A program made the translations under genes and the position numbers. From Convolutriloba macropyga (taxonomy: Eukaryota): DNA of 64,000 nucleotides. The stretch is taken from NCBI RefSeq assembly GCF_964194025.1, contig NC_134476.1, positions 24,924,001 to 24,988,000 on the forward strand. The letters run 5' to 3'. Of the stretch, positions 20,390 through 58,042 are shown piece by piece (the first letter of the stretch is position 1; each line of letters starts with the position of its first letter). The notes beneath the pieces were generated by a model. That model was not told the DNA's origin. It did not search any database and saw nothing but the letters and a program-made list of their open reading frames with translations.

Positions 20390-20953
20390 TATCATGTGCT
20401 CAAATATTATGTATTCGCTAGTGGTTGTTCATTTTGGTTGAAAGCAATTCTAGTTGATCAAATTGATTTGTTTACTCGAGTAAAATCTTTCAAATTAAAA
20501 CTTTTCTGGCAAGAACGAATACGTTGCTGAATTAACGATGGTTGTTCACAGCATTACAGCTTCAACAATTTAGCGAACAAAAATTGTGCTGAGCACCTAT
20601 TACAATTTAACGATTTTTCTGTTATTATTCACTATTGGATAGCTTTAGCGGTTTGGATCTTCGAATGGGTGAGTCGACAATCCCTTCGACAGCTGAAGAT
20701 CTTCTCTGGTAAAAACTTTATTTCAGTAATACAACTGTTTATTAGCGAGCAACTATTTTGTCTGTTACAATTTTAATATCTTGTTATTTACATTCAAATA
20801 TAGGCAAATATTAAACAGATTTTTCCAAAGTTGATTGGAATTCAGTAGTAAAGTTCAATTATGTAATAATGTGAACAAAATGATGGCATAATAAGAGTTA
20901 GTTAAATAACAGTAAAAGGTCAACGTTTGAACTTGGGTTTGAGCTACGTCATA
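20390..20953 (-). repeat. 3' LTR
   Basis: Direct repeat of 33065-33628, preceded on the minus strand by the polypurine tract. Confidence 0.96.
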
Positions 20954-20964
20954 CTCCCCTCCTC
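20954..20964 (-). promoter_or_regulatory. Polypurine tract
   Basis: GAGGAGGGGAG directly upstream of the 3' LTR. Confidence 0.85.
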
Positions 20965-21279
20965 AGGGAGACTTCCGGGCTCGAAAAATTTCGATATCCA
21001 TCATTCAGCGACGAAGCTCAAATCCGTAAAAGAGTAGAAGTTTGCCACAGTTCCATACCAGTTAGAAAGAATAAATGCGAGTAGAAAAGAATAAATGATC
21101 GTCCAACAATCGTACCATATGATAAGATCAGAAGAAATTGCTCCACTCCAACCGAATAATCGTTAATGAAAAAGTGATCTGTCGCAGTATGGGAGGAACT
21201 ATTGGTCTGCTGCAAGGGTACTCCAATTCTTCTTCAGTTTGGTAGTGCACATTATACTTTACAATACAACTGCACTAAT

Positions 21280-23665
21280 TCAAAGATCAGTTTCAATGCG
21301 TTGAGAACAAGTTTGTGAGAGACATGGGTCTGAATTTGATTCTACGTTTTTGTTCAACGTAGATAATGAAGTGCGTGAGCGAGATTTACTTCTCGGTCTA
21401 GTGGCTTCAGTCAGAATGTGATAGTTGTCTTTCCATTTTTGTGGAATGGCATCAGCAGCAATGTTGTCCTTCACACTAATGACTGGTTTGACACCAATGT
21501 CGTCATTTTTTGATTTGAGGAATGATGGAACAAATTTACGAATGATCTTAAATCTGTGATAAAGATAGAGAAATAAAATGTGTAAAATTATGTTCCCAAT
21601 GAAAACAATAACTGTAAGCGACAAAGACAACTTTAATGGGACGTATTCTTTGAATTCAGACACAAGTGTAGGCTTTAACGTTCTCATATCAGCAGTGATT
21701 GGTCTCGCAATCTGAACCAAGTCATCACTTTATTTTTGGGCTTCGAATCAGCTCTGCTCTCACTTTTCTCAGAAGCTCTACTCCCGCTGTTGTTCGAGAC
21801 TCGAAGTAGGGCATCTGATCGATTTGTGGAATTTCGCTCATCAAATGCTCTAAGGGATCTGGTAGCTTAACGTCGATAAGTTTCGCTTCAACTCGGTCGC
21901 AGCTCTCGAGATCGGATCGAATCTTCAAATTTTCTCCAACAATTATTTGATAGTTGCATTCGACTGTTATAATGCATATCTTGCATCCCGGAATTATTCT
22001 GTTCCATGACTTATGTACAGAATCAAGACTGTACTCACGCATTTCATAAGAATCTGAAGCCGAGGTGATTAGCCAAATGCCGTATCCTAAATTGGCAGCA
22101 TTCGCTTGCGTAGGAAGGTAAAATACTTCCGTGTCGCAAGTCTCCGCTGCTTTTAGGGTCGAACTAACGAAAAGGGTTGCCAGGCAAGAAGGATGATTCG
22201 TTTGGGTAGCGATAGTCTCATGGCATATTCGGTATCTAGCTGATCCTAGACATGCCTCAAACTGATCTTTTGAAAGTGTTACCGATTCCATTTGATCCTC
22301 TGATATGGCAAGATAGGGCGCTTCTATGACCCATCGGATTGCCATACGAGGTTCTGGCTGTGGCATCGGAACTATTTGCGCCTGGTACGTAGAAAAAACA
22401 GTTTGTCGCGAGGCCAACGGAATGGCAAGTGTAAGAACTAGTCCTTCATCCAAAGTCACGACATCTCGAAGAAGTTTTGCGTCATAATATGATAATAAAT
22501 CTGTTGGGGGTATGGCTAACGACAATCTGCTACCACTTAAAGACTGGTCAGCAGCGACAGATTTCAGTATAGCAAGTAGAGATTCTTTGGGTACCAAGGA
22601 CATTGGTAAATGTTGTTGTAGTAACGTTGGGATGGCATTTAGGACATTCATGCGATACGTGTAGAGAGCTGTTCTATAGCTTTTGACGTCCGCATAGAGC
22701 ATTGAGAGAAGAGAAGCTGCTGTGTCGAAGTTGAAATTGAGCTGTTGGTTCGAGAACAGCATTTGGGTGCAGTCTCGTAGAATGTGGAAGTTGCCCTCGA
22801 AAACTTTAAATTGCTCCTCGATGATAGCCCAATTTTTATTCTGTGTCTCTATCATCTGGTTTTGTGTCTCCCTAATCTCTTTTAATTCATTCCCAACTAA
22901 GAAAAACTTTTCATCAGTTGCAGTTTTTATCTGCATTACGTAGTCCGTCAGTGATGAAGTGAAACTGTATAGTCGATCAATATTAGCTGCATTCTCTTTA
23001 GCTCTGTCCTGGCATGATCCAAAAATGCCAGAGAGACCGCATCCGCCTCCATTTCCCATGAGGACACCAGAACCAAAGAGCCCTATTCCAGCCATAGCAG
23101 CGACTGCGACATGTGCTCCTCGTTTAACTCGGTTGTTTGTTCCTCTGATTTCATCACTGTTTTGAAGAAAGGTTGAAGTTTCGTTTCGAATGAGTCGAAC
23201 ATCCAGACTCGACTTATTGACTTCTTTCTCTATCTTTGACAAGATCCAATCAACATTGAAAGATGAGGCATTTCCATTAAAACTGGATGAGAAATCAAGT
23301 GGACACTGGATTGATGGTAATTTCCACATGTCATTCAAGCGTCTGAGTAATGTATTCAACTCTGGTTTTAAGGAAAAGTTGTACGATGGAAATGGAACCA
23401 TGAATTGAACAGGGACGAACTTTTCAGCCAAGAGAATTTTCGTTTCTTCGTTGAAAATTATTCCTTTTTCGAGTACGTCATCAAAGTTGCGCTCTTCTGA
23501 TGATCCAGCAGTATGAATATACATTAGGATGAGTTTAAGGAATAACGTGGCAAGCTTCATCATTCTAAACATGTGAACATTTGTGACTTTGTGTTTCAGG
23601 AGTGGAGTCATATGAGAAGTGTTACAGGTTTTAGTATAGAGAAAAGATATGCAGGTTTTTATCAT
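21280..23665 (-). pseudogene. env: Env-like class I fusion glycoprotein (baculovirus F / errantivirus env-like), one frameshift at about 21730
   Basis: Signal peptide MMKLATLFLKLILMYIHTAGS, furin site RVKR followed by fusion peptide GAHVAVAAMAGIGLFGSGVLMG, heptad repeats and a Cys-rich ectodomain. The TM segment LSLSLTVIVFIGNIILHILFLYLY lies in the downstream frame (21720-21280). Confidence 0.88.
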
Positions 23666-23680
23666 AATATTGTCAGTTAA

Positions 23681-23793
23681 CAGTACCGCCGACTGTGGCG
23701 TTAGGTGTGGGAACTATCAGGTTCACAAGTTATGTAGGTTTGTAAGGTAATTGATTCAGTTCAAAGCAGTACCGCCGACTGTGACGTAAGGTG
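23681..23793. repeat. 27-bp direct repeat between the divergent env and antisense genes
   Basis: cagtaccgccgactgtggcgttaggtg (23681-23707) and cagtaccgccgactgtgacgtaaggtg (23767-23793). Confidence 0.85.
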
Positions 23794-23900
23794 AAAAACA
23801 AGTTTCAAAATATGCAGTTGTGCATTAATGTGTGCAGTTTTTATAATTTTTAATCAAGAAGGCTACGTGAACTCAACGGAGTATATTCTTCAGAGTAAGA

Positions 23901-24217
23901 ATGGATGAGTTCGTAACTATGGCAATAATATTGTTTTTGCGTACGCGCAAAACTAACAGCACCATTCTTACGACGAATGAAAAACGAAAGGAGTTCCGCG
24001 ACTTGTGTCGTTTTTTTGAAGAGAAAGACGGCAAATTGGTCGCAAAAAGCGATCATTCGGTGGTTCCCACCCTTGCAGAAGTTGAAGCAGCTCTCCGAGA
24101 CGAGCATTACAAGGGGTTTAGCCATCTGAAGACTCGTTCGTCTCTCCGGGAGGTGTTGACGGGAAAATCTTGGTCCTACCCACCGAAACTTGGGGGATTC
24201 ACTCGGCTTGTAGAAGA
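23901..24217 (+). CDS. Antisense accessory gene of the LTR element, exon 1 (integrase-like H2C2 domain, N-terminal half)
   Basis: ATG ORF ...KRKEFRDLCRFFEEKDGKLV...VVPTLAEVEAALRDEHYKGFSHLK...WSYP...LVE ending at a consensus donor GA|GTGAGT. Confidence 0.75.
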
Positions 24218-24341
24218 GTGAGTTCTCTTTCAAGTTGATATTTTATAACAAAAAGTAACTGCATTAAAAGAGTTAAGGAAATTGTTCTAAAAGTAGAGAA
24301 AGCGTTGACTATCTGCGTAAACTGGAGCTTTGATTATTCAG

Positions 24342-24598
24342 GTTTGTCAGGACCTGTCCTCATTGTTACACTGAGGAGAACCAAAAAAGGCGGTTTCTTT
24401 GTACGGCTGTTTCGGAAAATCGCAAGAGAGCTTGGTGTGAACAGTTTGGTTTCACTTTTGTGAAAGATGCGGTTAAATACACCAACTCTGTTTGTGAGCT
24501 CGGGACTCCGGAACCAGCCGGGAAACCAAAATATGCTGAGGTTCATGGACAGTGTATTTTCTCTAGCATTTATTATCTGATTGTGGGGAAACGTTCAG
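24342..24598 (+). CDS. Antisense accessory gene, exon 2 (CxxC completing H2C2; OTU-like catalytic Cys motif)
   Basis: Acceptor ttattcag|. The in-phase join gives VEEFVRTCPHC. The frame stays open to AEVHGQCIFSSIYYLIVGKRS; donor G|GTTAAT. Confidence 0.72.
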
Positions 24599-24663
24599 GT
24601 TAATCAGCTTGCTGTTTTTTTTTTAAATTCATCATTGTTTCGAAAATTCTACATTTTATATAG

Positions 24664-24880
24664 GTGCGAAGTCAAAGAGTGCAGGAAAATCTAAGAAGAT
24701 GAAATCCTCTCCCTGCAATAAATTGAGGATTGCTACAGGGACTTTTATGCTGGAGAGCAAGGCTTTTTCATCTTTTTGTGCTCTCAAATACCATGTGTTA
24801 TGCAATGACTTCGAGATCACCACAATCGGGATAATGTAGGCCCTGTAGGAGAACATTGGGTTCGAGTTAAAATTTTTTTG
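24664..24880 (+). pseudogene. Antisense accessory gene, exon 3 (remainder of OTU-like domain, apparently frameshifted near 24809)
   Basis: Acceptor attttatatag|, in phase. Reads ...CNKLRIATGTFMLES...KYHVLCND, then stops at 24837-24839, while the -1 frame reads RDHHNRDNVGPVGEHWVRVK. The 3' end is uncertain. Confidence 0.5.
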
Positions 24881-25618
24881 CTTTCATTTGATCATTCTAG
24901 CTCACTGAACTTGGTGATTCATTTAGATTCTTGGTCTGGCTTGGCTATTGGGGCTAGACATTTACGTCTTTTGGGAATATTCTTCTGTTTCGTGTTGGGA
25001 GAGGTACATGCACTCTCCAACAAGTCAAAGTGGGGGTCCAGCACTTCTCCTGCATGTAAAACACAATGAGCATTACAATGCTTACCATTGTGAACCCCTA
25101 CTAGAGTTCCCGTCAAGAGAGTATGTCTTTCTCTATTTTTTTTACTCTTTTTTTGAAAAATTAATCATTTTTTTTTGAATTGAAGTACTGAAGGTGAATT
25201 TGATTCCTCCGGAGTCAACGGAGAAATTGGTCCTCGCGCTGCGAAGCGTTTGAGGAGTGACTCGGACTGAAAGTTGAGTTATGAGAAACTTATATTGAAT
25301 AAATTCAAATTTTTCATTGAACTCAACAGTTTTGACCTCATCACATTTGCGAAGAAACACTGAAGACATCTCAGAATACTCAATCCTTATCGGTTTTTCT
25401 CTCTACAGCTTTGCGGGTGATCATTTCGACGGTTTTTAGTGGCAAAAAGTGCAATTTTTCTCGAAGAAATAGGTGAATATAAAAAGCGCAATGAGATAAA
25501 GGTCAGAAAAAAAGTTCTTCCAAATCAGTTCAAACTTATCGGAATCGAATCTACATGCAAAAATAAGGTCGCAGACTAACTAAATTGGAGAAATTTTTTT
25601 TTTTGAGAATTTTTTTTT

Positions 25619-26033
25619 TCAAACAAAGAAATGAATTTCAAGTGATAACGAGCTGAAAATACCAAGAATAATCTTGCAGACGTGAGCCCAATCTAGACCC
25701 GAGTAGGATTCGAGCTGCTTCATGGCAATTTTTTCCACATTTTTGTCCTGAATGTGAAACTTTAATGTGTTTAAGCCTGCTATCAGGTTTGAATAACTTC
25801 CTGGTTCGAACTCTGTGTCTCTAACAATGAGGTTAAAGACAAACCGCTTCTGAAAGTTATCAAAAACAGATATCACTGATCCTTTGGCGTAACTTCTTGT
25901 GTCTTTTACGTTATCAAAAGAATTGATATTGAAAAATTCTAGGTTGTGAAATTTGTTTTCATTAGAAGTTGTTTGAACTATTGTGTCTGTAAAGTGTCGA
26001 ATATCTGATGTATGGTAATAAACCTGCAATTTA
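25619..26033 (-). other. TARG1/OARD1 (Poa1p/DarG-like) macrodomain at the integrase C-terminus
   Basis: RFVFNLIVRDTEFEPGSYSNLIAGLNTLKFHIQDKNVEKIAMKQLESYSGLDWAHVCKIILGIFSSLSLEIHFF aligns by eye with TARG1 [75 protein letters not shown]. Confidence 0.8.
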
Positions 26034-29000
26034 TTTGCCTCAAGTGTGTTCATGTTGTTAGAACTACTCTGCTCCTTTGCTTTTCTTATTCTGGTTCTAC
26101 AACCAACTGCTAATTTTGTGATCGGTGACAGTTCCTTTGCCGTTGCGGCTGTTCTCGGAGTTGAAGTACTTGTTCCAGGTGCATCAGTTTCACCTAATTG
26201 TTGATTTTTCACTTCTGTGCTTCTTTTGACGTCCAGTTTTGTTGCTCTAGATTCAGCTGCATTAGGATTTTTGATTAGACGTTCCATGTTTTTTCTATAT
26301 GACTGTTTAATATTACTTTGTTTTTCCGATTTCTTCAAGTGCGAATGTGGAATCAACATCTTTCCATCTATTGTACGAACCACATGCGGGTGATCCTTGT
26401 TAGCAGGTGCTGGAGAACGTGTTCCTTTTTTGAATTGTACTTTTCGAGGTTGGGTCTTTGATTGTCTCTCATTGTCTTCAAATAAATTGCGTCCTGTTTC
26501 ACGCTTAATTGATATTGGTGTTTCTGTTTTCTCGTACTCATCGGATTGTGCTTCCTCCTGCGTATTGGCGGGCTCTGTCGTGGTTTGCTGTGGCTCTCTG
26601 TCTGCGTTGTGGCCGTTGAATTGTTCAAATTGTTCAGTTTCACTTTCATTATTGACTTCTGGGAAAAATGGAAGTTCGGCAAAGTTGTCTACGACTTCGT
26701 CATTTTCTTCTATTGGAATGTTAGCCATCTGCTCTCCTTGTAGGTCGCCAGCGTCTTCTGCCGGTTCGAAAGGCTGAGCAGGGACATGGGGAACTATTGG
26801 AGCCACAGCAGGTGCAGGCAGTGCTCCTGCTGCGGCCATTGGGAAAGAGAGTGTGACTGTTGCAGGTGGTTGCTCTGTTTGATCTTCTTGATTTTCTTGT
26901 GGCACGTCGTCAATAAAATGGTGTTCAAGCAGTTTTGGAATTTGTTCATCGAACAATTCTGGTTCTTGTCTGTTTTTTCCCAAAAGAGGATCAGGAACGA
27001 ATTTGTTCGGATCAATGTCATCAAGATCTGATGACTTCACGTTTGTTGTATAGGGTCGAAGTCTTATACGGTGTACGCATTGTGTGAACAAAGTGCCAAC
27101 ATTTCGAATCAGGTAGTTTGAATTTGTTAGTACTCTCTCAATTCGATACAACGGCAGCCAAACAGTCATTGATTTATATCCAAAGTCAGATTGATTCATG
27201 AGCTTTGGGTTAAGTAGCAGGCAAAACGAATTAAGTGCTAGAGGGCTTGAAAGTGCCTTTTCGTCATAGTATGTTCGATACTTATGATAAGCGTGTATTA
27301 ATTTTGACTTATTCTCGGAAAATTTTTGCTGCATAGCATCTTGCAATTGGATAACAAAGTCAGATTTCGGATCAAGATTTTTCAGATTTTTATTGTTGAA
27401 CCTCACATCCAAGGGTTTAATCGGTTCACGACCGTGAAAAATTGATGTGGGTGTGCAACCTATTGACGAATAATATGAGGTATTATGAATGTAGGTTGAT
27501 AGAGGCACATATTTGTGCCAGTTGGACCATTGTTCATTAGTATTGAGTTTAAGAATTCTTTTCAGCGCTCCGTGTGCTCTCTCAACAACACCTACAGATT
27601 GCGCGTGCTTAAGTGTGGCGTGTTTAAGCTTTACTTCAAGCAATTGTGCTAACTCGTGCATTAGATCGGATACGAAACTACTGCCTAAGTCTGACAAAAT
27701 CGTATGCGGTATATAACTGTGTTGGAAAAATATTGATGTGAGCTCTTGTGCTACTCTTTGTGCGCTTACATTAGTGAGTGGTACAGCAAAAAGGTATTTG
27801 GAGAAAACATCAATACCAGTCAAAGCATACTTATAAATAGTTCCACGAAGTGGACCGACTAGGTCGATTTGAAGCATGTCCCCGGGAAAGGACTGTAGTG
27901 ATGATAAGGGTTGCAAAAATGTTTTTAGCGCTTTATTGGAAATGAGTTTTGTCTGTATACATGTTAGGCAATTTTTGATAGCATTTAGAAGATATTCTGT
28001 AAACCCAGGAAAATAAAATCTTTTTCTGAACTCAAAGGCAGTTCTAACTATTCCTATGTGTCCAGCAATTTTCGAATTATGCAATCTATAGATTACCTCT
28101 TTCCAAAGGTGTTTAGGCAGGCAGTACTGGTTGTAGAGAACTTTGCCAGTGTCATCAAAAAACTGTCGATACAGAACATCATTTTCAATTGTTAGTCTAT
28201 TGAATTGCTTAGCGTATTTTTTAAAAAGAGTGCGAATGATGCGTACTTGATATCCTCAACAGTGTTATTTTGTTTCCAAAAGATAACACGCTTTATAACT
28301 TCATCTAATGACTGCTCATGTTTAAGGTCGATAGGATTCAAGCGTTCAGTCAAGTCGTGCAAAAAATCGGCAGGATCATGCATCAAAACTGCATTGAGTT
28401 CTGGACCTTTTGATTTCAAACGAATAAAAGTTTGTATTTCATCGTCGTCGGTTTTTGAACTTTGCTCCTCAATTTGTCTTAAAATTCCATCTGGTATTCC
28501 AGATTGCTTCAACTTATCAAGCATTTCAATGCTGACGTTTGCTTTTTGTTCAAGTAAACACTCGATATTTGCCAATGAACTGAGTGATACGTCAGGCGTT
28601 TTGGCTGTTGACTCAATTTCTATCTCTCTAATTGGCATTCTATCCGTCAACTTTAGTTTCATTGTTTGCGATGGGTCAGTTTGCGACCTCGAAAGGAAAT
28701 CGGCAGCGTAATTTGCTCTGCCAGGAATGTGAGCGATAACAAGGTTGTATGACAAAACACGGTCAAGAAAATTCCATAGCGACGGTGGAATACTTTTTGC
28801 TTGGAAAAATTGGGTTAAACTTTTGTTGTCAGTAAGGACTATTACAGCTTTTTCCGTACCCCAAAGATAATGAGAAAAATGCTCAAGGGCAAAATAAAGT
28901 GCAAGAAATTCCTTATAGTAGACTGAGAATTTAAGCTGAGCGTTATTAAACAGTTTTGAACCAAACGCCACTGGCGCATAAGTTTTTCTGTTCTCATTTT

Positions 29001-31265
29001 TGTTGTTTTTAACATAATCCTCAATCATCAGTACAAAACCGGTGCCAAAATAACTGGCATCGCAGAGTAGAACATACTGCAATCCTGGTTTAGCTAATCT
29101 TAACGTTAAATCAGTTGCTTTTACAAGATCGGTTTTGACTATTTCAAGATGTTTTTCGTGTTCCTCTGTTAAGACAGGTTCAATATCCTTTCTCAGTAGC
29201 TTGTAGAAGGGCATGAGTTTATCTCCCAAATTGGGTATAAAATCACGCCAAAACTGGACAAAACCAACTAAACGCTTTACCTGTTTTGGTGTTCGGGGTA
29301 ACTTGATTGTTTTGAGAAACTTTTCGATTCTTTTGGATTCTGGTTGTATACCTTCTGGTGTTATAATTTTTCCAAGAAACTTGACTTTTTGCGTGGCAAA
29401 TGTACATTTATTTGGTGAAAGTTTAAGACCTGATGTTCTTATGCATTCAAATATTTTTCTGAGACTTGGAATCAACTCATCAAAATTTTTTACTGCGCTT
29501 CCTATGTCATCCATATACTGAGTGCAGATGTTTGCTGCAAGACAAGAATCTAAATAGTGCCTGATAAATGAACTGAATCCTGTTACGGACTTGCTTAGAC
29601 CTTGTGCTTAACACTTGTATGCATAGGTGCGAGAGGAAAAATTAAAGGCTAAAAGTTGGACTGAAAGATCATCCGCCATTTGAACACAGTGGTATGCCTG
29701 CGAACAATCAAGTTTTGTAAAAAAGGATTTTCCTGCAGAGTGATTTGAAGCATCGCTCATGTTTGAGATTGGAAAATTACTATTGATATAGTCATTTCTT
29801 AACAGATGATTGATACGCCTTAAGTCAATAAGAATTCTCAGTTTGCCAGAATCTTTGCGTTGCGCAAATATTGGACTACTGTACTTTGAATGTGATAAGG
29901 TCGTGATCAAATTATAGTAGTGCATCAATGCAAGTTCTACTGTGAGCTCATCTCTCAGGTGTATTGGCGTTTGTTGACTTTGAACATAAACAGGAAGGTT
30001 ATGCTCAGGTGTAAGTTTGATCTTTAACTCTGTGTTATAACCTACATCGAAACGGTGTTTAGCAAATATATCAGAAAATTCCACTAGTAACTTTTCTACC
30101 TGACATTTTTGCTCAAAGGTTAAAACAGAATTTTGCCAATCGAACTTTTCAAGAAAAAGGTCACGATCTTTTGCGTTATTCTTGGGGTCAATTTTTTCAA
30201 GATTTTGAAAGTGCAGAATTTGATCATAAATATCACGCTGCAAAGGAGACAATTTGCTGGGACTGTCACAGGTTTCAGGGGTCGGAAACCAAAGTTTTTC
30301 ATATTCTGGTTTTGGTCTGGTTTGATTCAGAGGCTGAAAGTTTTTTGTTTGAACAAGTTGATTAATTTCAGCTTCCAAGTTTTCGTGGCTTTTCATTTTT
30401 GCCAAAGCAATAAGCTGCGGGTCTACATTAACTAGCTTTTCTGTTTGTTTTTCATTCAAAATTTCAAAAAAGGCGACCTTTGAATCAACACATAGGGTTA
30501 TTTTGTGGTCAGTGATATTAAGTGCTGAAATAAAAACTCTACTTTTCTCATCTAATGTACTCAAGGATGATGTTAGAGCTATTTCCGTTTCGTTTTCAAA
30601 CTGAGTGCAAGGTATTATTACTCCACTGCAATTTTCTAAATTAGGAAAGCTCTTGTCGAGATAACATTCAAGCAATTGATGTGAGTTGGGCTGTAGTTCG
30701 TGTTTTTTACTCAGTAATATTGGAATTTTCTTCAGTTTTTTAGATGTTTGCCTCTTTTTATCTTTTGGCTTTATTTCATTAAGTTGTATTGTCATTTCAG
30801 GTAATTTCAATAAATTATAAGCGGGACTAATGTCGATAAAATTTTTCTTGAAGAAAGGGTTTCCTAAAATGACGGTATTCATTGTTGGAAGAACTAAAAA
30901 ACTATCACTGAAATGATGATTGCCAATTGTGAATTTTACTTTGATTTGCTGTTTTACTACAACTGGGGCACTTGAAGCTAACTTAACAGTGTTATAAGTG
31001 GGAGTTTCTACCTCAAAACAAATTTGTTTTTCCTCGAACTCATTTAATAAGGATAATGGGATAGCGTTTGAGCAAGATCCTGAGTCAATTAAAGCTCTTC
31101 GGCGAAGACTATTATCAAATTTTATTCTAACATAGGAGAGAGTTTCTCCTTCTAGAGGGATTACTGCGCAAATATTATCCTCAATCTGCATGTCTGAGTC
31201 TAATGAAGTATTTACATGTAAAGATTGATTTGATGAGCTGGTATCTAATGGAACTTGTGGCTTAT

Positions 31266-32495
31266 CTAGTTTTTTGAAGACCGTTGAAACGGAAAATTTG
31301 TTCCACCTCTGCGTCCACGTGATCGCATTGAGCAATTAGTTGCCAAATGATTTGGATAACCGCAGATATGGCAAATGATTTGGGCATATTGAGAAACAGG
31401 AACATGTGTTTCCTCAATTGGTTGAAAAACTTGAACAACTGGTTGCTCATTACTTGCTGTTTGTTGTTCTTGGATCGGTTGAAAGTTTTGCGGCGTTGTC
31501 GGCGCAAACTGTGGAGCATTTGGAGTATATTGGAAATTATTTTGAGCAGGGAATGAGAACTGGTTGTTGAAGTTATTGAAACCTCTGTATCCTCTCGATC
31601 TACCATAGCCTCGAAAATTTCCTCGACTTCGGTAGTTTGAATTGTTATATGAACCTCTTTGTCCACGGTTTGAGCCTCTAAAACCATTTCCCCGAAACTG
31701 ATTTCCAAAATTCTGACCTTGTGAAAATTTTTGCTCATCGAAACGTTTATTTTGCTCCTCGACTTGCTTACTTAAAGCGCTCATTCTATTTTCCATAGAT
31801 TCCTGCGTTTGGCTAAGTTTTGATAAAGCATTTATCAAATTATCTGAAATTGTTGGACTCACTTCGTTAAAAGCTCCGTCAATATAGTCCTCTTTTTTGC
31901 AAAGGTCGTGGATGGTCAGTTGCTTCCTAGCCAAGAGGCATGAATCCTCAACTGTTGTGTTGTCTGGTTGTTCCAACAACTTTGCTCTAAGCCAGCTAGG
32001 CATACATTTTTTGAAAAAGCGCTTCGTCTGATTTTGTCTCTCTTGTTGTGCAAAACGTAAATTCTCATCATTTCTAGCATCTACGGCATCTTGAGCCGCC
32101 TGATCCGCTCCGGGTGGATACGCCTCGGGTATGGGATCAGGATAAGCTTTCAAAGTCATATTTTGCAGGGACACAAGAAAATTTTCTGGTGAATCAGTTT
32201 TTGGGTAGAAACGAACATTTTCTAACTTGATTACATGTAACTCTTGCAACTGTGGGTTGCAGAAATGATTTCTTAACGCCGTTAAACTTAGAGCTAAATC
32301 ATTGCGTGTCGCTTCTGGTAAAGTCTGGAAATATCTTAGAGCTGCATCTCTCAGATGCAATTGCAAAAAGTTAGCCTGTTGGGCTCCTGCTACTGCTGCA
32401 ACTCCTATAATGCTTCTTAAAAGATGCTCGAACTCTCGAAAACTTTCTTTATCTGTACCGCTGAACGGTTTTAAGGCAATGTTAGGTTGTGCCAT
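31266..32495 (-). CDS. gag: Gag (capsid-like region, coiled coil, RG-rich segment, CCHC zinc knuckle)
   Basis: 409-aa ORF after the PBS; FSG...LHLRDAALRYF gypsy capsid pattern; CHICGYPNHLATNC knuckle. Confidence 0.92.
   Translation of the reverse strand: MAQPNIALKPFSGTDKESFREFEHLLRSIIGVAAVAGAQQANFLQLHLRDAALRYFQTLPEATRNDLALSLTALRNHFCNPQLQELHVIKLENVRFYPKTDSPENFLVSLQNMTLKAYPDPIPEAYPPGADQAAQDAVDARNDENLRFAQQERQNQTKRFFKKCMPSWLRAKLLEQPDNTTVEDSCLLARKQLTIHDLCKKEDYIDGAFNEVSPTISDNLINALSKLSQTQESMENRMSALSKQVEEQNKRFDEQKFSQGQNFGNQFRGNGFRGSNRGQRGSYNNSNYRSRGNFRGYGRSRGYRGFNNFNNQFSFPAQNNFQYTPNAPQFAPTTPQNFQPIQEQQTASNEQPVVQVFQPIEETHVPVSQYAQIICHICGYPNHLATNCSMRSRGRRGGTNFPFQRSSKN
31269..31275 (-). promoter_or_regulatory. 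gag-pol -1 ribosomal frameshift slippery heptamer A AAA AAC
   Basis: TCA AAA AAC TAG at the gag stop; the -1 frame is the open pol frame (FKKLDKPQ...). Confidence 0.8.
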
Positions 32496-33046
32496 TTTAT
32501 GTGCTCTAAATTTAAGTGTTTTAGCTTTGTAGTGTAGTTGAGTTGGTTGGACAGTGGTTCAACTTGCCGAGGAATTAAGAATTTTTAGTGTAGTCTCTTG
32601 TTTTGATGGCCTTAGACTTATTTAGATTCAAGATTTGAGTAAATGTAAAGGTTTCAAGCTTGATTATTTCTGAGAATCATATTCCTTACTGTGATCAATG
32701 TTTCAAATCAGTTTTGATGATTCAAATCAACAGAATGAAATCAGGAACAGATAGAGGTGTGGCGTTATCATAAAAGCACTGTATTAATTCACTGCACAAA
32801 AGTTGAAATCTAACGAACCCTTGTAGTCACTATGTTGTTGCGTCTGCCTATCAGCGTCAGCTCTGGCCACAGGGATATTGGTCACATGAAATCACAATTC
32901 CACCAAGCTGCAGTTCTCACTGTACTGATTTGAAACTGTACTGATTTGGATGGATACTGCTCGTTGTTCTGTTTTAGCCCTTCAATTCCGAAGTTGACAG
33001 TGGTGAGGATCTTTTCGAAGGTATTGGCTCACTATCCTGTCGATTG

Positions 33047-33064
33047 TCGTCCGTTCTGTCACCA
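33047..33064 (-). promoter_or_regulatory. Primer binding site
   Basis: TGGTGACAGAACGGACGA directly after the 5' LTR; TGG is complementary to tRNA CCA. The cognate tRNA was not identified. Confidence 0.8.
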
Positions 33065-33628
33065 TATCATGTGCTCAAATATTATGTATTCGCTAGTGGT
33101 TGTTCATTTTGGTTGAAGGCAATTCTAGTTGATCAAATCGATTTGTTTACTCGAGTAAACTCTTTCAAATAAAAACTTTTCTGGCAAGAACGAATACGTT
33201 GCTGAATTAACGATGGTTGTTCACAGCATTACAGCTTCAACAATTTAGCGAACAAAAATTGTGCTGAGCACCTATTACAATTTAACGATTTTTCTGTTAT
33301 TATTCACTATTGGATAGCTTTAGCGGTTTGGATCTTCGAATGGGTGAGTCGACAATCACTTCGACAGCTGAAGATCTTCTCTGGTAAAAACTTTATTTCA
33401 GTAATACAACTGTTTATTAGCGAGCAACTATTTTGTCTGTTACAATTTTAATATCTTGTTATTTACAATCAAATATAGGCAAATATTAAACAGATTTTTC
33501 CAAAGTTGATTGGAATTCAGTAGTAAAGTTCAATTATGTAATAATGTGAACAAAATGATGGCATAATAAGAGTTAGTTAAATAACAGTAAAAGGTCAACG
33601 TTTGAACTTGGGTTTGAGCTACGTCATA
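33065..33628 (-). repeat. 5' LTR
   Basis: Direct repeat of 20390-20953 with about 6 substitutions by eye. Followed on the minus strand by the TGG-PBS. Confidence 0.96.
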
Positions 33629-38595: not shown

Positions 38596-41500
38596 AGTGT
38601 ATCCTACCTCCGTTTATCTCTTATATGTCCAGTCAGATTTTTTCAGATGCTAACTTAAAAGTTCTACGTTTTGCGCGACTTAGACCTCTAAAAATTTAGG
38701 TAGACAACACCCTAATATGCTCTTCGGCCTTAGTTAAGCATACAAAAACAAGTTTTCAACAATATTTGTAATTTTGAGAGTCGCACTAATGGTAGCAAAT
38801 AAAGCTCTATATATACATTACAATTCGCACCATGGGCACACAAGTTATGGTCAAAAACGGGAAATCCCTTACCATAAATAATATTGAATTGAAAGTCAAC
38901 AACTTTTGACTTCTTCAATAAAATCAACAAAAATAAAGCGCATCAAGGAAAATAGGTTGAGGGAATGGAAATCAGGAAATGAAAGGGTTTGGGAGGACGG
39001 AAATGTATTTGGGGGGAAGAAAATGTTTGCAAAGCTATTTAATGTTCAATTGAACAGCTCGAAGAGTCTTTAGTATTCATTATTCATTCAGTTCTTTGGT
39101 TTGTATTTCAGGACTCTAATGATGTTTTTATATTTCATCGTCAATCATTTTGTTCTGACATCTCGTTTCGAATCAGCTTTTCTGCATTCATTCCTGCTAT
39201 TAACTGAATAAATTGTGGGTCTGCCGCCTTATTTATACTTATTGTTTATTCATTCGCGTGAATATAGCTTATTGATGGCACACGACTTAGCTCACTCTCA
39301 AAATAATATGTCATTTCTCCAAAAATGAGTTTGCTAGTTGAACTTAATAGACAGTTAGGTTAGTTGAGGATAATATCTTAACCTAATTGAAGCCTAATTG
39401 AGGGTAAAATTAGAGCAGATGATTGTGACAGATTTTAGACATGGTCGAAATTCTAACAAATCTTCACTTCCAATTTTTAGGTCTTTCTTTTGAGACTACA
39501 GCCTTGAAGGCCAAAGCAGCAATATTATCAATCTGTCAGCTCTGTTCTTTTATTCGTTCATCTTCATTTTAATTAGTTTCCATTTAGTGAAGAGAGTTTT
39601 TCTGGTATAATTGGTAACAAAGAACAATTCGAGATAGAATACCAACAAATTGAAAGCTGCTGTCTATTTTTTAAAAAAAATATAACAACCAAAATCATTA
39701 GGTAGACCGTCAAACTATTATAGAACAACTCGCCCAAATCCCAGCGCCAGCCCCACTTTTTCTTATAAACAAAAAGTGTTCAAATTTCGTAGCTTCAAAA
39801 AAGGAAAACTCAGCCTCTAAATAGGACAATAAGCTGAAAATCAATAACAGTTAGCAGTGTACTCTCGGGATCTCTGATAATATACCGCACTAAGACAAGT
39901 CTCCACAGACATATGTCTAAGCCCGGCTTCCTTGTTTTGACATTGCTTATTGACAATTACCGCAATTGAAACATTGAGTAAGGTAACTCAATAACTAATT
40001 GACCCTAAGTGTATCCTACCTCCGTTTATCTCTTATATGTCCAGTCAGATTTTTTCAGATGCTTACTTAAAAGTTCTACGTTTTGCGCGACTTAGACCTC
40101 TAAAAATTTAGGTAGACAACACCCTAATATTTATGCTCTTCGGCCTTAGTTAAGCATACAAAAACAAGTTTTCAACAATATTTGTATTTTTGAGAGTCGC
40201 ACTAATGGTAGCAAATAAAGCTCTATATATACATTACAATTCGCACCATGGGCACACAAGTTATGGTTAAAAACGGGAAATCCCTTACCATAAATAATAT
40301 TGAATTGAAAGTCAACAACTTTTGACTTCTTCAATAAAATCAACAAAAATAAAGCGCATCAAGGAAAATAGGTTGAGGGAATGGAAATCAGGAAATGAAA
40401 GGGTTTGGGAGGACGGAAATGTATTTGGGGGGAAGAAAATGTTTGCAAAGCTATTTAATGTTCAATTGAACAGCTCGAAGAGTCTTTAGTATTCATTATT
40501 CATTCAGTTCTTTGGTTTGTATTTCAGGACTCTAATGATGTTTTTATATTTCATCGTCAATCATTTTGTTCTGACATCTCGTTTCGAATCAGCTTTTCTG
40601 CATTCATTCCTGCTATTAACTGAATAAATTGTGGGTCTGCCGCCTTATTTATACTTATTGTTTATTCATTCGCGTGAATATAGCTTATTGATGGCACACG
40701 ACTTAGCTCACTCTCAAAATGATATGTCATTTCTCCAAAAATGAGTTTGCTAGTTGAACTTAATTGACAGTTAGGTTAGTTGAGGATAATATCTTAACCT
40801 AATTGAGGGTAAAATTAGAGCAGATGAGTGTGGCAGATTTTAGACATGGTCAAAATTCTAACAAATCTTCTTTTCCAATTTTTAGGTCTTTCTTTTGAGA
40901 CTACAGCCTTGAAGGCCAAAGCAGCAATTTTATCAATCTGTCAGCTCTGTTCTTTTATTCGTTCATCTTGATTTTATTTAGTTTCCATTTAGTGAAGAGA
41001 GTTTTTGTGGTATAATTGGTAACAAAGAACAATTCGAGATAGAATACCAACAAATTGAAAGCTCCTGTCTATTTTTTAAAAAAATATAACAACCAAAATC
41101 ATTAGGTAGACCGTCAAACTATTAGAGAACAACTCGCCCAAATCCCAGCGCCAGCCCCACTTTTTCTTATAAACAAAAAGTGTTCACAATTCGTAGCTTA
41201 AAAAAGGAAAACTTAGCCTCTAAATAGGACAATAAGCTGAAAACCAATAACAGTTAGCAGTGTACTCTCGGGATCTCTGATAATATACCGCACTAAGACA
41301 AGTCTCCACAGACATTATGTCTAAGCCCGGCTTCATTGTTTTGACATCGCTTTTTGACAATTACCGCAATTGAAACATTGAGTAAGGTAACTCAATAATT
41401 AATTGATCCTAAGTGTATCCTACCTCCGTTTATCTCTTATAAGTCCAGTCAAGATTTTTTCAGATGCTTACTTAAAAGTTCTACGTTTTGCGCGACTTAG

Positions 41501-42820
41501 ACCTCTAAAAATTTAGGTAGACAACACCCTAATATTTATGCTCTTCGGCCTTAGTTAAGCATACAAAAACAAGTTTTCAACAATATTTGTATTTTTGAGA
41601 GTCGCACTAATGGTAGCAAATAAAGCTCTATATATACATTACAATTCGCACCATGGGCACACAAGTTATGGTCAAAAACGGGAAATCCCTTACCATAAAT
41701 AATACTGAATTGAAAGTCAACAACTTTTGACTTCTTCAATAAAATCAACAAAAATAAAGCGCATCAAGGAAAATAGGTTGAGGGAATGGAAATCAGGAAA
41801 TGAAAGGGTTTGGGAGGACGGAAATGTATTTGGGGGGAAGAAAATGTTTGCAAAGCTATTTAATGTTCAATTGAACAGCTCGAAGAGTCTTTAGTATTCA
41901 TTATTCATTCAGTTCTTTGGTTTGTATTTCAGGACTCTTATGATGTTTTTATATTTCATCGTCAATCATTTTGTTCTGACATCTCGTTTCGAATCAGCTT
42001 TTCCGCATTCATTCCCGCTATTAACTGAATAAATTGTGGTTCTGCCGCCTTATTTATACTTATTGTTTATTCATTCGCGTGAATATAGCTTATTGATGGC
42101 ACACGACTTAGGTCACTCTCAAAATATTATGTCATTTCTCCAAAAATGAGTTTGCTAGTTGAACTTAATTGACAGTTAGGTTAGTTAAGGATAATATCTT
42201 AACCTAATTGAAGCCTAATTGAGGGTAAAATTAGAGCAGATGAGTGTGACAGATTTTAGACATGGTCGAAATTCTATCAAATCTTCACTTCCAATTTTTA
42301 GGTCTTTCTTTTGAGACTACAGCCTTGAAGGCCAAAGCAGCAATTTTATCAATCTGTCAGCTCTGTTCTTACATTCGTTCATCTTCATTTTATTTAGTTT
42401 CCATTTAGTGAAGAGAGTTTTTATGGTATAATTGGTAACAAAGAACAATTCGAGATAGAATACCAACAAATTGAAAGCTGCTGTCTATTTTTTTAAAAAA
42501 ATATATCAACCAAAATCATTAGGTAGACCGTCAAACTATTATAGAACAACTCGCCCAAATCCCAGCGCCAGCCCCACTTTTTCTTATAAACAAAAGTGTT
42601 CAAATTTCGTAGCTTCAAAAAAAGGAAAACTCAGCCTCTAAATAGGACAATCAGCTGAAAGCCAAAAACAGTTAGCAGTGTACTCTCGGGATCTCTGATA
42701 ATATACCGCACTAAGACAAGTCTCCACAGACATTATGTCTAAGCCCGGCTTCATTGTTTTGACATCGCTTTTTGACAATTACCGCAATTGAAACATTGAG
42801 TAAGGTAACTCAATAATTAA
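38596..42820. repeat. Tandem array, three ~1.41-kb units
   Basis: agtgtatcctacctccg recurs at 38596, 40008 and 41412; the units are nearly identical. Confidence 0.95.
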
Positions 42821-45800
42821 AGGTGAAAATCGTGATCTAAGTAAAAAAAACTGATCGAAAACTAAAAAGAAAAAAGCATGCCATAAAGTATTGTATTGAT
42901 ACAATCCGAACAGTTGAATGAAAAAACGAAAATATTGTGCCCAAGTAGCAGACTAAATGACAATCACAGCAGCCAAACAGACAAACGTAGCTTCACAGAA
43001 TCAGAAAAAATAGCATTCCAAGTGTAAATACTTTTATGATCAGTGTGTTAAAACATAAAATTCCCTTGAGTATCTGGGTCCAAAATTTAGAGACAATACT
43101 GATTTAAAAAATTATTGTATGGACAGCACCATGCCAAAAAAGTTACCTAATTCTTCAGCTCCAAAAACATGGAAGTATGAAAATATTCCAAAAACTTCAA
43201 ACAAGAAAATCACAGCGAATTTGTTTTCCTCTTCATACTTATGAATGCCAAACCAAGTTTTCATACTCAATTTCATATAATAAGTAACCTGCATGCTAGC
43301 AGAAAACTTGCTGCACATACAGGGGCAAACAGAAAAGAGAAATAAAAATTGGAAATAGCCAAGAGTACAAGAAATTTGCATATGTTCGCTATGTCCGCAA
43401 AATCAAAAATTCAGCCACTAAAACATACATTGAAAAGTTTCATTGCACCCAACAAAAAAAAAACAAATTTCATAAAACTATGAAAAGGTTTTGATCATAA
43501 TTTTATGAAAATCTGATAAGTCATATTTCTCTGACACCAGACACTATCCAGTAACCAATCTTCCAGCTCTAAGTTCCAAATTGCCACAGTTAATAAGAAA
43601 CCGTTCAAAAATTAATTCACCGGCTCGAGATACAACCCAGTAACACGCCCACAAGTCCCAAAAAGTTATTGCCTCCTAAGGATCAAAAATCTAAATTAAA
43701 AAAGAGCAAAGTATGCAAAAGACCTCAAAATTGGCAAAAATCACTATCATTTTAGGTGTTTAAGTTTGCATTAAGTTTGTGATTAAGTTTATTCATTTTG
43801 ACTTTGTGTTTAAGTCTAAACAATTTAAGTCTTTAAGTTTGTATTAAAACAACATAAAGCACGAAAAAGGGACATAAAAACAGATTATAGATTCCAAAAG
43901 ACCTTAATAAACATCGAAAAGCGTTAAATTAATATCCAACTAATCAAATTCCAGAAAATGTCAAAGACGATGAAAAATTGAACTTTTTGGGCTCAGAACC
44001 ATGTGACCTTTTCATCTTGAAATCAGCCTACCCAGCAGTTTAAGCACTCTAGGCACTTGAATTAAACTACTAAAGCCAGCTCAAGTTTTCCAGCGAAACA
44101 ATGCTCAATGGGCGTTACCTGTTATTCCGTTTTGAGAGCTCTTAAGTCAAGAACTTTTGAAAACAGAAAACAAAAGAAACCCGTAATTTTTGTTCCTTTG
44201 ATTATAGCCTGATCAGAATCAACATTTTAACCTGCCTTCTCCTTGATATCAAATTTTGACATCTCGCTTCAAATCAGCTGCTCTGCGTTCATAGTTTAAT
44301 TGATTGGTTAAATTCCGGGTCTGACGCCGTTTTTACACTTATTAGAGCGAGTTGTTTATTCATTCGCGTGAACTCACCAAAAAAAAGTCATTTCTCTAAA
44401 ACTGACTTGCCAGTTGAACTAAATTGTCGGTAGGGTCAGTTCAGGATAAAATCTTATCCTAAATGAAGCCAAATTGAGGCTCAATTTAGAGCACATGTGT
44501 GACAAATTATAGACATAGCCAGAATTCTATCAAATCTTCCGTTCCCGTTTTTTTAGGTCTTTATTTCGAGCCAGAAGTCTATCAAATTTTCCGTTCCCGC
44601 TTTTTAGGTCTTCCTTTTGAGACTAAAGCCTCGGAAGCTAAAGCAGCAATTTTCAATCTGCCAGCTATTTTCATTTACTTGTTTATCTTCATTTTATCTA
44701 TTTTCCATTCAGTGAAAAAAAATGTTAAGAACAGTTCGAGATAAAATACTAACAATTTGAAAATTTCTGTCGATTTCAAAAAAAAACAATCACGACCAAA
44801 ATAATTAGGTCGACCGTCCAATTTTCATAGAGCAATTCGTTAAAAATCACAACGGCAGCGAAAATTTCTCGAAGTGAAAAAAAATTTCTAATTTTGTAGC
44901 ATCAAAAAATGGCAAACTCAGCCTCTAAATAGAAGAATAAGCTGAAAACTAATAACAGTTAGCAGTGTACTCTCAGGAGTTCTGATAATTTACCGCACTA
45001 AGACAAGTGTTCACAAACAATATCTCTTAGATCCCGAGCTTCATTGTTTTCACATCGCTTTTTGACAATTAGCGCATTTTCGCAAATCTGTTGAACACAT
45101 TGAGTAAAGTAACTCAATATAATCAACGGTGAAAATCGCGATCTAAGTAAAAAAAAACTGATCGAAAACTAAAAAGAAAAAAGCATACCATAAAGTATTG
45201 TATTGATACAATCCGAACAGTTGAATGAAAAACTGAAAACATTGTGCCCAAGCAGCAGACCAAATGACAATCACAGCAGCCAAACAGACAATCATAGCTT
45301 CACAGAATCAGAAAAAAAAGCATTATCAAATAAGCACTTCAAATAAGAATATCATTGCCAAATTGTTTTCTTCAAATTTATGAATGCCAAACCCAGTTTT
45401 TCTTACTCAATTTTATATAACTACTAACTTGCATGCTAGCAGAAAACTTGAGTCACATACAGAGTCAAACAGAAAAGAAATAAAAAGTTGGAAATAACCA
45501 AGAGTATAAGAAATTTGCATATGTTCGCTATGTCCGTGAAACCAGGAGTTCAACCACTAAAACGCGTATTGATAAATACAATTGCCCCCGACAAAGTGAA
45601 AAAACCAATTCCATAAAAATATGAAAAGGTATGAAAAATTCTGATAAGATCGTATTTCTCTGAAGCTAAAAAATATCCAGTAACCAATCTTCCAGCTCTA
45701 AAGTTCCCAACTGCCACAGTTCATAATAGGAAACAGTTCCAAATTAATTCATCGGCTCTCGATACAACCCAGTAACACACCCACAAGTCCAAAAAAGTTT

Positions 45801-51800: not shown

Positions 51801-53250
51801 CTCCACAAAATCAGAAAAATAGCATTCGTAGTTTATATACTTTCATGATCAGTGTGTGTCAAATACCGAGATTCGCTGGAGTTTCTGGTTTCGAAATTTT
51901 AAGACGAAATTGTGATGTAAAAATTTTTGTATAGACAGCACAAGCTCAAGCTGAAAAAAGTTATTCAATTCTTCAGCTCTACAAACACGAAAGTATGAGA
52001 ACATGAAAACATTCCAAAAACTTCAAAGAAGATCATTGCAATTTTGTCTTAATCTTCATACTTATGAACACAAACCCAAATTTTTTTTTAACTCAAATCT
52101 ATATAACAACTTATGAGCAGGCTAGAAGAAAACTTGATGCACATACAGAGGCAACCAAAAAAAAAGAAAACAGAATATGGAAATAACCAAAAAAAAAACA
52201 AGCATGTCGCTAATGTTCTTGACGCTATGACCGCAAAACCAAAAATTCAGCTATTAAATCACACACTAAAAAATTCATTGCCCCGGCATTGAAAAAAATT
52301 TCACAAAATTATGAATAATTACAACAATTTCTGATAACACGATCATTTCTTTGTCTCTAGAAACTATCCAGTAACCAATCTTCCATCACCAAAAAATATC
52401 ATTGTCCCCTACAGATAAAAAACAACAAGTCAAAGTTGCCGCAGTTCATGATCGGAACACGTTTAAACATGTTCTCTTGGCTATAGATACTATCCAGTAA
52501 CAAATCAACAGGGCCCAAAAAAGGTATTAACTCCTAAGGATCTAAAAGTTTAAAATCAAAGTAACAAACATTCAAATGACCTCAAAAAAGGGCAAATATC
52601 ACTATCATTTCAGGTGTTTAAGTTTGCATTAGAACAACATAGAGCACGAAAAACGGACACAAAAAGAAGGAATTATAGCTTGCAAAAGACCTTAATGAGC
52701 CTTGAAAAGCGTTAATTTATTATCCAACTAACTGAGTTCCAGAAGATGACAAAACCGTGGAAAAATTGAACTTTTCAGGTTCACAAACAACAAGTGACGT
52801 TTTCATCTTTAATTAAGCCTACCCAGCAGGTTCAACCCCAGTCGATTTCGAATGGTTATCTTGCAAGATTCTGGCAGATTCTGCCAGAATCTTGCAAGAT
52901 AACCATTTTTCTGCCAGAATCTTGCAAGATAACCATTTTTCTGCCAGAATCTTGCAAGATAGGCAGTTTTTGCAAGATTCTGGCAGAATCTTGCAAGATA
53001 ACCATCTGGTCTCGACTGGGGAACACTCTAAGCACTTGGAATAAACTACTAAAGCCAGCTCAGGGCTTCGAATGAAACTTAATGCGCAGTGGACGTTAAC
53101 TGCTTATCACGCTTTGAAAGCTCTAAGTCATGGAAGAATTTCTGAAAACAGAAAACAAGAGAATCCAATAGTTTTCGCTCCTTTTACTCTAGCGTGATTA
53201 AAATCACCATTCTAATTTTACTTCTCATTGATATCGAAATTTCAAGATCT
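42821..53250. repeat. Tandem array, about 4.7 units of ~2.1-2.3 kb
   Basis: Unit start ggtga(a/g)aatc.tgatct recurs at about 42821, 45128, 47303, 49394 and 51630, with shared internal blocks such as cactatcattttaggtgtttaagtttgcattaag. Confidence 0.92.
52836..53021. mobile_element. 186-bp MITE-like insertion with TIRs and internal 30-bp repeats
   Basis: TIRs CCCCAGTCGA...TCGACTGGGG flanked by AA/AA, with repeated palindrome ATCTTGCAAGAT. It is absent from the same site (cccagcagcttcagcactcta) in the other array units. Confidence 0.88.
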
Positions 53251-57493: not shown

Positions 57494-58042
57494 GTTAGTT
57501 CCGGATTTGTCCAAAATCTCAAGAATCTCATTTTTTGCAGATTTTAGTTCCAGTACCTTGAGCAATTATTGGAACACTTGCGCATAACGTGAAGAGAGGA
57601 TATAGTCTACTATGTACCCAATCAGGTGAGGAGTGGAAAGATCCGATGTTTGCAATCAACGCGTGAATGAGACAACTCATACCAACATGATTTCTTTCCT
57701 AACATCCTTTTGAGCAAGGCCAAACTTAATTGCTAAATGAGTTTTGTCTCATAAAATTCCTTAATGTGTATCTGTTATTCAGGCCCCTTTTAAACATTTC
57801 AGTCATTCTGTGACTCAATAGCATAGACCCATCAAATTAAGAACCCAATTTATCCACCTTCATAGCGTTATAGGCACTCATGAAAACAGCAACTTGTCTT
57901 AAGCAGCAACCTCAAAAAAGAACGATTGTGGTAACTTTTGCGGTAGTAAAAGTAACTTTTGGGATACTAGCAAATAACTTTTGGGCAAGTATTAATAACT
58001 TTTGCAGAAGAAATAACTCGCTCTTTTTTTGTTTGCTTCCAG

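Follow-up and report, generated by a model that had tools for sequence, protein, structure and literature searches.

An env-bearing Ty3/gypsy element with a Pol-fused macrodomain and an exchangeable antisense slot for a predicted zinc-finger-OTU protease

Gypsy elements with env are usually taken for simple gag-pol-env viruses, and a copy in the genome of Convolutriloba macropyga raises the question of why such an element would carry a macrodomain and an intron-bearing antisense gene between integrase and env. The copy, an env-bearing Ty3/gypsy element of 13.2 kb, lies on the minus strand at positions 20390-33628 of the window, the 64-kb stretch of DNA analysed here. Its 564-bp long terminal repeats (5' LTR, 33065-33628, ending TAT...ATA and not TG...CA; 3' LTR, 20390-20953) are 98.9% identical, with 6 mismatches, and the target-site duplication (TSD) is 5 bp. 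A primer-binding-site-like stretch (PBS, 33047-33064) begins with TGG and abuts the LTR, and is followed by a gag ORF of 430 amino acids with a weak CCHC knuckle (31266-32558), by pol, encoding protease, RT, RNase H, integrase (HHCC, rve) and a linker (26051-31335), and, next to the 3' LTR, by a polypurine tract (PPT, 20954-20964). The Pol order PR-RT-RH-IN, together with the LTRs, TSD, PBS and PPT, all of which are present, is that of Ty3/gypsy elements. The element is multicopy and, as the initial annotation had it, young. Close relatives were not found in metagenome scans, which returned just seven distant RTs at 23-28% identity.

The env gene (21280-23713, minus strand) is probably of the F type. 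It encodes a hydrophobic N-terminus, an RVKR site, a Gly/Ala-rich peptide and a hydrophobic helix at the C-terminus, and relatives carry env ORFs of 750-840 amino acids. A third sense ORF with a signal-like N-terminus, a basic cleavage site and a membrane helix is what operationally defines an errantivirus, and this element has one. The env sequence matched nothing in PDB or Pfam, nor in a search against viral contigs; a sister env gave an Atlas lead (0.93) to Fusion_gly clusters. In the window copy itself, pol, env and the antisense gene all carry frameshifts: that of pol lies near 28,225, in addition to a stop near 29,607, and that of env near 21,730.

The macrodomain is in frame with integrase, forming the final ~140 amino acids of the integrase ORF (25619-28255, minus strand; macrodomain, 25619-26050). 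As a single sequence it has only a weak PDB match (E=0.045) and no match in Pfam, whereas a profile built from 11 copies identifies it at E=3e-25. An AF2 model (pLDDT 87) is matched by Foldseek to TARG1 (E=7e-10, TM about 0.75), so that profile and model both place it nearest TARG1, and the earlier description of a TARG1-type macrodomain fused to Pol holds. The fold is shared with human TARG1 and bacterial DarG, whose Lys84 and Asp125 equivalents are absent from the window subfamily: in the window macrodomain an Arg occupies the Lys84 position, and the Asp125 loop is missing, changes that the initial annotation does not mention. Since this pair is catalytic in TARG1 (PMC9411070), the subfamily macrodomain is probably not a standard hydrolase, although inactivity does not follow, because SCO6735 lacks both residues and is nonetheless active, according to the same source. 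Among the 11 aligned rows, Lys is kept in seven and Lys and Asp together in three, meaning that some sister lineages retain the catalytic residues.

Between pol and env, five exons are predicted on the plus strand, with splicing read from the DNA. Exon 1 (23901-24217) encodes the His...His half of an integrase-like HHCC module, and exon 2 (24342-24598) its CxxC, a pre-domain resembling that of Helitron OTUs, and the predicted catalytic Cys (codon 24553-24555). The helical part of the OTU domain is in exon 3 (24664-24859), and its beta sheet in exon 4 (24927-25120), with the predicted catalytic His at codon 25086-25088 in the motif HCEP; the predicted exon 5 (25186-25270) carries a basic KRLR tail and the stop codon, with an AATAAA at 25298. 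Introns 1-3 are constant in position and phase across families that are 25-55% identical. In 17 copies from about 13 families, donors 1, 2 and 3 are GT in 15, 15 and 17 copies, and acceptors 1 and 3 are AG in 17 and 15. Wherever an exon-2 locus lies near a macrodomain match (45 of 45 cases), position and orientation are likewise fixed. No joints with skipped introns were seen in the contigs of three runs from one study, a result that weighs neither way, and each search for a full-length spliced homologue gave one exon-level ORF. At the level of DNA sequence, then, the spliced antisense gene is real as a conserved structure. In the window copy, exon 3 is shifted out of frame by one base near 24,820, a change that none of eight siblings shares; with this and the breaks in pol and env, the full protein cannot be made.

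The predicted product consists of the HHCC zinc module, an OTU fold and a basic tail, the last in only some families. Single-sequence Pfam and PDB scans of the exons and of the read-through found no match, and the gene is not detected at the Pfam OTU (PF02338) cut-off, where scores are lowered because exons were scanned apart. In contrast, hhalign of the OTU profile gives P=95.7% and E=9e-9 over 127 columns, with 30 shuffled or reversed controls at or below 1%. The fold was modelled on a copy from a sister family (42% identical in exon 2) with its introns read through, and is thus not that of the window protein; AF2 confidence drops under 50 nowhere except at residues 86-105 and 158-172, which correspond to intron-coded stretches and their edges. 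In VIA, this model matches OTUD1 at Z=10.0, with an rmsd of 3.0 across 129 residues, and the top 33 matches are all OTU-like, the first unrelated one following at Z=3.2; the best Foldseek match has E=0.017. Viral OTUs, which match in fold alone and not in sequence, do so no better than cellular ones (OTUD1 and OTUD3, Z 10.0 and 9.8, versus 9.9 for viral OTUs). The Cys motif GxC is found in every one of 13 rows and the His motif HCxP in every one of 11, and the residue at His+2 is E in nine rows, N in one and L in one, giving the Cys/His order and the mostly acidic or amide His+2 of OTU proteases; the Asp of the D-G-N-C motif, at position Cys-3, is not conserved. With conserved splice sites, an invariant Cys motif and the sister-model fold, the separate antisense gene with an OTU-like Cys motif proposed earlier is borne out as a conserved structure that is predicted to be spliced. 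The HHCC module has a moderate likeness to that of integrase (P=72% and E=3e-5 in hhalign, where no control exceeded 2.6%), with the second His present in most rows.

The antisense gene, a spacer and the macrodomain make up a cassette (23799-26078) that has been swapped in 3 of 3 copies examined, each 95-97% identical to the window copy elsewhere and carrying a diverged homologue of the cassette. The slot is therefore modular, since near-identical backbones carry different cassettes, as judged with a tree of elements from this genome alone. Next to the swap boundary, the interval separating the env start from the antisense ATG contains a 27-nt sequence repeated directly (two copies, 23681-23793, plus strand), which is not conserved outside the subfamily and its swap sister. 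Among 27 hand-picked relatives, 12 carry the OTU gene, 11 a JmjC-like gene and four an empty slot, and thus the cassette is dispensable for the clade. The JmjC-like genes match Pfam Cupin_8 (E=2.5e-5, with Pfam scores below cut-off), with PHF8/PHF2 as best PDB matches (E=0.002) and Atlas values of 0.94-0.97. They keep the HxD/E...H iron triad characteristic of JmjC in the cupin domain, and are likely to encode demethylases; no HHCC module was seen in these stand-alone genes. OTU and JmjC products alike end in basic clusters, in some of the families.

Comparisons between families, akin to the dN/dS check proposed in the initial annotation, show the accessory modules to be under purifying selection. 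For the antisense gene, dN/dS is 0.41 (0.22-0.75) and 0.32 (0.22-0.58) in two pairs, and five further pairs have pS of 0.77-0.82 against pN of 0.33-0.37; the degenerate macrodomains give 0.09-0.41 in six pairs. A control, the integrase core of the L108/L110 pair, has pS 0.36 and pN 0.03; misframed integrase rows, the window-L080 comparison among them, were excluded. Counting against selection are three of nine antisense pairs and one macrodomain pair: intervals span 1 in two antisense pairs and the L104/L112 macrodomain pair. Within the young subfamily, private changes in the antisense gene look neutral (56 N/19 S, dN/dS 0.84), and the shared changes (3/2) are too few to reveal recent selection. 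Private changes give the same neutral picture for the core genes, as is expected after insertion.

Each part of this architecture has a precedent, with macrodomains known in the Pol region (PMC4977317) and OTUs in transposons (PMC2836005). The 'ancient errantiviruses' of Chary and Hayashi (PMC13524379) share the gag-pol-env order, LTRs, a probable F-type env, and a young, multicopy state. However, a keyword search found no macro, OTU or antisense in that text and neither domain in seven supplements, and its prefilter allowed a pol-env gap of 500-1000 nt (with wider manual windows for some phyla), versus about 2-6 kb here. Ginger1, as described in PMC2836005, has an HHCC zinc finger, a C-terminal OTU and GT-AG introns, but the antisense gene is not classed as a Ginger1: it is a passenger within an LTR element, and neither a DDE domain nor terminal inverted repeats were found for it. 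The detected sequence kin of the antisense OTU are Helitron-borne OTUs of the same genome, with profile similarity over the whole OTU and pre-domain, although Helitron/Helentron OTUs (PMC6431247; ORFs of this genome) are intronless and fused to Rep-helicase. Fish epsilon-like ERVs with macro-domain ORFs (Basta 2009, cited in PMC4977317) are LTR retroelements that also captured a macrodomain, but belong to Retroviridae, and an antisense OTU is not reported for them in that source. Plant Retand/Tat elements have conserved antisense genes downstream of pol, likened to retroviral antisense genes in PMC11963269, yet they lack env, encode a TRP28 domain instead of enzymes, and are described in a text without the word 'intron'. 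The combination of gypsy env, macrodomain and antisense OTU was not found in the literature searched, though a repeat catalogue such as Repbase, Dfam or GyDB may hold an entry for it. Within that literature, the view that this architecture lies outside the known plan stands for the combination and not for its parts.

What, then, might the slot do? The reading to which we give an even chance is that of an env-bearing Ty3/gypsy element with an exchangeable slot, whose predicted zinc-finger-OTU protease is likely nuclear and likely takes off ubiquitin that marks for silencing or degradation. The antisense gene would yield a spliced protease that enters the nucleus, and strips ubiquitin that silences the element or destroys its proteins. 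Introns would survive in antisense because they are not spliced from the reverse-transcribed genomic RNA. Through its HHCC module, the enzyme would be anchored on DNA or chromatin, as yeast Spt10 is by its integrase-like finger (PMC1807970). A shared ability to erase repressive marks would make OTU and JmjC interchangeable, and the macrodomain would travel with integrase, hydrolysing ADP-ribose where Lys and Asp are kept and serving as a binder or scaffold in the window subfamily. Somewhat more tentative is the broader proposal of a 'complex errantivirus' clade, in which an antisense locus swaps deubiquitinase and JmjC genes by recombination beside a macrodomain, as counter-silencing erasers of ubiquitin, methyl and ADP-ribose marks.

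The initial annotation had likened the accessory genes to RNA-virus immune evasion. On such a reading, OTU and macrodomain would dampen cytoplasmic ubiquitin and ADP-ribose antiviral signalling during cell-to-cell spread. An env gene is present, nairovirus OTUs are among the best fold matches, and viral macrodomains counter antiviral PARPs (PMC7729036). However, the cellular OTUs score equally, the sequence kin are Helitron-borne, and the macrodomain is TARG1-class and degenerate in the window subfamily, making this reading improbable. The folds stand, but JmjC genes in the slot and basic product ends favour nuclear or chromatin action over interferon-type evasion, and JmjC exchange and the HHCC module suit a nuclear role better.

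Rather unlikely is a role in transposition, with the HHCC module docking OTU on the element's own integrase/PIC against ubiquitin/SUMO turnover, and the macrodomain handling PARP at integration breaks. Ginger1 transposases and Helitron proteins carry fused OTU and Ulp1 domains, for which PMC2836005 suggests a role as aids to transposition, and both the integrase likeness of HHCC and the integrase-fused macrodomain would fit, but replacement by stand-alone JmjC genes without HHCC is left unexplained. That the modules are neutral cargo, with the OTU gene left over from a Ginger/Helitron insertion nested in the element and the macrodomain carried along as it decays, is very improbable: the window copy is broken, macrodomain catalytic residues are lost and selection is not visible in the young subfamily, but the core genes look neutral on private changes too, DDE and inverted repeats were not found, and the fixed orientation, with intron sites and catalytic residues kept over saturated synonymous distance, largely refutes this reading.

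Returning to the nuclear reading, the likely function of the slot is to remove the marks by which the host silences the element. The clade has enzymes as accessory products, an antisense gene with introns, and exchange of its cassettes, all of them features associated with complex retroviruses, in keeping with the retrovirus-like lineage first suggested. Elements of this kind would escape any survey in which the pol-env gap is capped or detection depends on ORF calling. Because OTU, JmjC and empty-slot families share one genome, they offer a natural comparison of the silencing marks that restrain retroelements.

The env-bearing Ty3/gypsy element occupies window positions 20390-33628 on the minus strand. 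Its LTRs are 564 bp each, differ from one another at six sites, and are bordered by a 5-bp target duplication. A primer site starting with TGG and a polypurine tract are present, and Pfam recovers the Ty3/gypsy order of protease (a weak match), RT, RNase H and integrase. The LTR termini read TAT...ATA rather than TG...CA (20390-20392 and 33626-33628), as do those of its siblings. The env ORF starts with a hydrophobic stretch, carries an RVKR site and has a hydrophobic helix at its C-terminus; a sister env gave an Atlas lead to paramyxovirus-like fusion proteins (0.93) but no match in the PDB. Three genes of the window copy are disrupted: pol at two places, near 29,607 and near 28,225; env near 21,730; and the antisense gene near 24,820. 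The copy's cassette region, the exchangeable pol-env interval, is matched at 96% or more in nine places of the 1.18-Gb genome, this copy included. Inside the young subfamily formed with its closest siblings, shared changes in the core genes (20 N/54 S) indicate purifying selection. Elsewhere in the window are a non-LTR RT-like fragment (6241-6882, minus) and an actin-like exon (57874-58503, plus), both recognised by eye, and a tandem array (38600-53200) of 1.4-2.3 kb units with internal repeats.

On the plus strand, five antisense exons are predicted (23901-24217, 24342-24598, 24664-24859, 24927-25120 and 25186-25270), followed by AATAAA at 25298; the fifth could be recognised in some families only. 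Introns 1-3 keep their site and phase across 17 copies from about 13 families; donors 1, 2 and 3 are GT in 15, 15 (plus one GC) and 17 of these, and AG is present at acceptor 1 in 17 and at acceptor 3 in 15. Introns in the sense strand would vanish from genomic RNA, whereas antisense introns persist. Exon-2 homologues gave at least 144 matches (144 of 150 scored, from 189 candidates), at identities down to 26%. When 63 of these 144 loci were compared with 49 of 150 macrodomain loci, 45 of the 63 had a macrodomain match within 6 kb, all 45 being antisense and convergent. An exon-4 profile search found 29 proteins, or 25 once four long repetitive ones were dropped; four of the 25 are at least 80% identical to loci collected here. 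For P0136, the one member of the profile search that was compared with this genome, no match exceeds 43%, and therefore the antisense family occurs in other assemblies. Between families, antisense dN/dS was 0.41 and 0.32 with intervals below 1, and 0.40 and 0.65 with intervals that include 1; in five pairs, pS is saturated (0.77-0.82) as against a pN of 0.33-0.37.

The initial annotation proposed that this spliced gene carries an OTU-like cysteine motif, and the intron sites kept in the DNA-based prediction, the GxC and HCxP motifs, invariant among aligned copies, and profile and fold matches all bear this out. Exon models, with X placed at the joints, aligned to OTU domains detected by PF02338 in the same genome (P=95.7%, E=9e-9), whereas 30 control alignments reached at most 1%. 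Both of the two host ORFs with PF02338 domains that were scanned are OTU-Rep-helicase Helitron proteins; Helitron ORFs of this type, of about 2,500 aa, are open in several copies (L140-L146, L160-L161). A sister copy, with exons 2-4 in one frame and stops entered as X, folded with a pLDDT of 80.9, confidence being low mainly at intron-coded stretches. Foldseek returned OTU proteins in 32 of the 32 matches listed, none reaching E=0.001, and with VIA the top 33 chains were OTU-like (OTUD1 Z=10.0, nairovirus 9.9, OTUD3 9.8), the first unrelated chain scoring 3.2. At its N-terminus the product is similar to the HHCC zinc domains of integrases (P=72%; no control exceeds 2.6%).

The C-terminal ~140 aa of the integrase ORF match TARG1 weakly (E=0.045). 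The claim of a TARG1-type macrodomain fused to Pol is nonetheless upheld by an 11-copy profile (TARG1 E=3e-25, DarG E=4e-7) and by the AF2 model built for the window's own copy of the domain (pLDDT 87), whose best match is TARG1 (E=7e-10, TM ~0.75); in two relatives, L104 and L112, the domain scores above the Pfam Macro cut-off. The AHCIS-D-M-G loop and the equivalents of Lys84 and Asp125, residues whose roles are taken from PMC9411070, are kept in three of 11 alignment rows, and the window domain has Arg at the Lys84 equivalent and lacks that of Asp125. The same source describes an active relative without these two residues. Degenerate versions are still constrained, with six dN/dS values of 0.09 (0.04-0.17), 0.24 (0.14-0.39), 0.17 (0.12-0.41), 0.41 (0.22-0.76), 0.34 and 0.22 by NG86, several pairs being close to saturation. 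A genome search gave at least 150 matches (150 of 150 scored, 495 candidates in all). The domain is also found in about 16 of 120 database Pols, which are not independent because at least one is identical to a copy from this genome.

The pol-env interval forms a modular slot. In three copies that were examined, identity to the window is 95-97% outside 23799-26078, and within that interval they hold a diverged OTU-macro cassette (exon 2 32%, macrodomain 48%). Of 27 elements picked by hand, OTU is present in 12, a JmjC-like antisense gene in 11 and neither in four. On trees of Pol and of env, which leave out four collected regions (deleted, rearranged or redundant), the three types intermingle, and Pol sisters can carry non-sister OTU genes, with branch supports taken from FastTree. 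OTU and macrodomain are separable, since four OTU-bearing relatives have no macrodomain match. One JmjC type gave 102 matches among 118 candidates, with context checked for part of them, and PHF8/PHF2 are the best, albeit weak, PDB matches of the JmjC-like genes. At least three JmjC-like cassette types were seen, long single-ORF and probably spliced (L104:5089-6174, plus; L113:1020-2105, minus; L110:6719-7336, plus; L180-L181, with a second, cupin-like antisense ORF), and in one such element (L190-L191) gag-pol is inverted relative to env. In most sister elements a second small antisense ORF, of ~100 aa, lies between the start of env and the gene for the enzyme (for instance L093:1441-1818, minus; L080:5226-5519, plus; L088:5312-5689, plus). 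It has a signal-like start, a Cys pattern and a membrane helix; none was seen in the window subfamily, and the one such ORF scanned had no Pfam match. Upstream of this small ORF, runs of tiny AG...GT-bounded antisense segments (L080, L082, L093, L110) suggest that there are micro-exons which are not translated, and that transcription starts far away, perhaps within the 3' LTR.

The HHCC module, the basic tails of the cassette products, which by motif we take to be NLS-like, and the exchange with JmjC genes would place the action in the nucleus, and it is because of these that a nuclear role is favoured. The putative OTU product may there erase repressive ubiquitin marks, a reading that we prefer to its three rivals and give roughly an even chance. 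That the predicted product protects the integrase instead is conceivable but doubtful. In the case of the counter-defence toolkit originally envisaged, the accessory modules have stood, whereas RNA-virus-like immune evasion by them is not favoured in light of the same nuclear indicators and appears unlikely. Neutral cargo, for modules that are under selection, is highly improbable.

Single parts have precedents: epsilon-like ERVs of fish carry macro ORFs (PMC4977317), Ginger1 elements and Helitrons carry OTU (PMC2836005, PMC6431247), Retand elements of plants have antisense ORFs (PMC11963269), LTR elements of rotifers have extra ORFs (PMC5408684), and chromatin domains occur in transposons (10.1101/2021.11.30.470311). 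The combination was not found in a search confined to the literature, and the accessible part of a pan-metazoan errantivirus survey (PMC13524379) makes no mention of macro, OTU or antisense modules. The element is genuine and under selection, shows more modularity than the initial annotation described, and represents a variant among env-bearing Ty3/gypsy elements.
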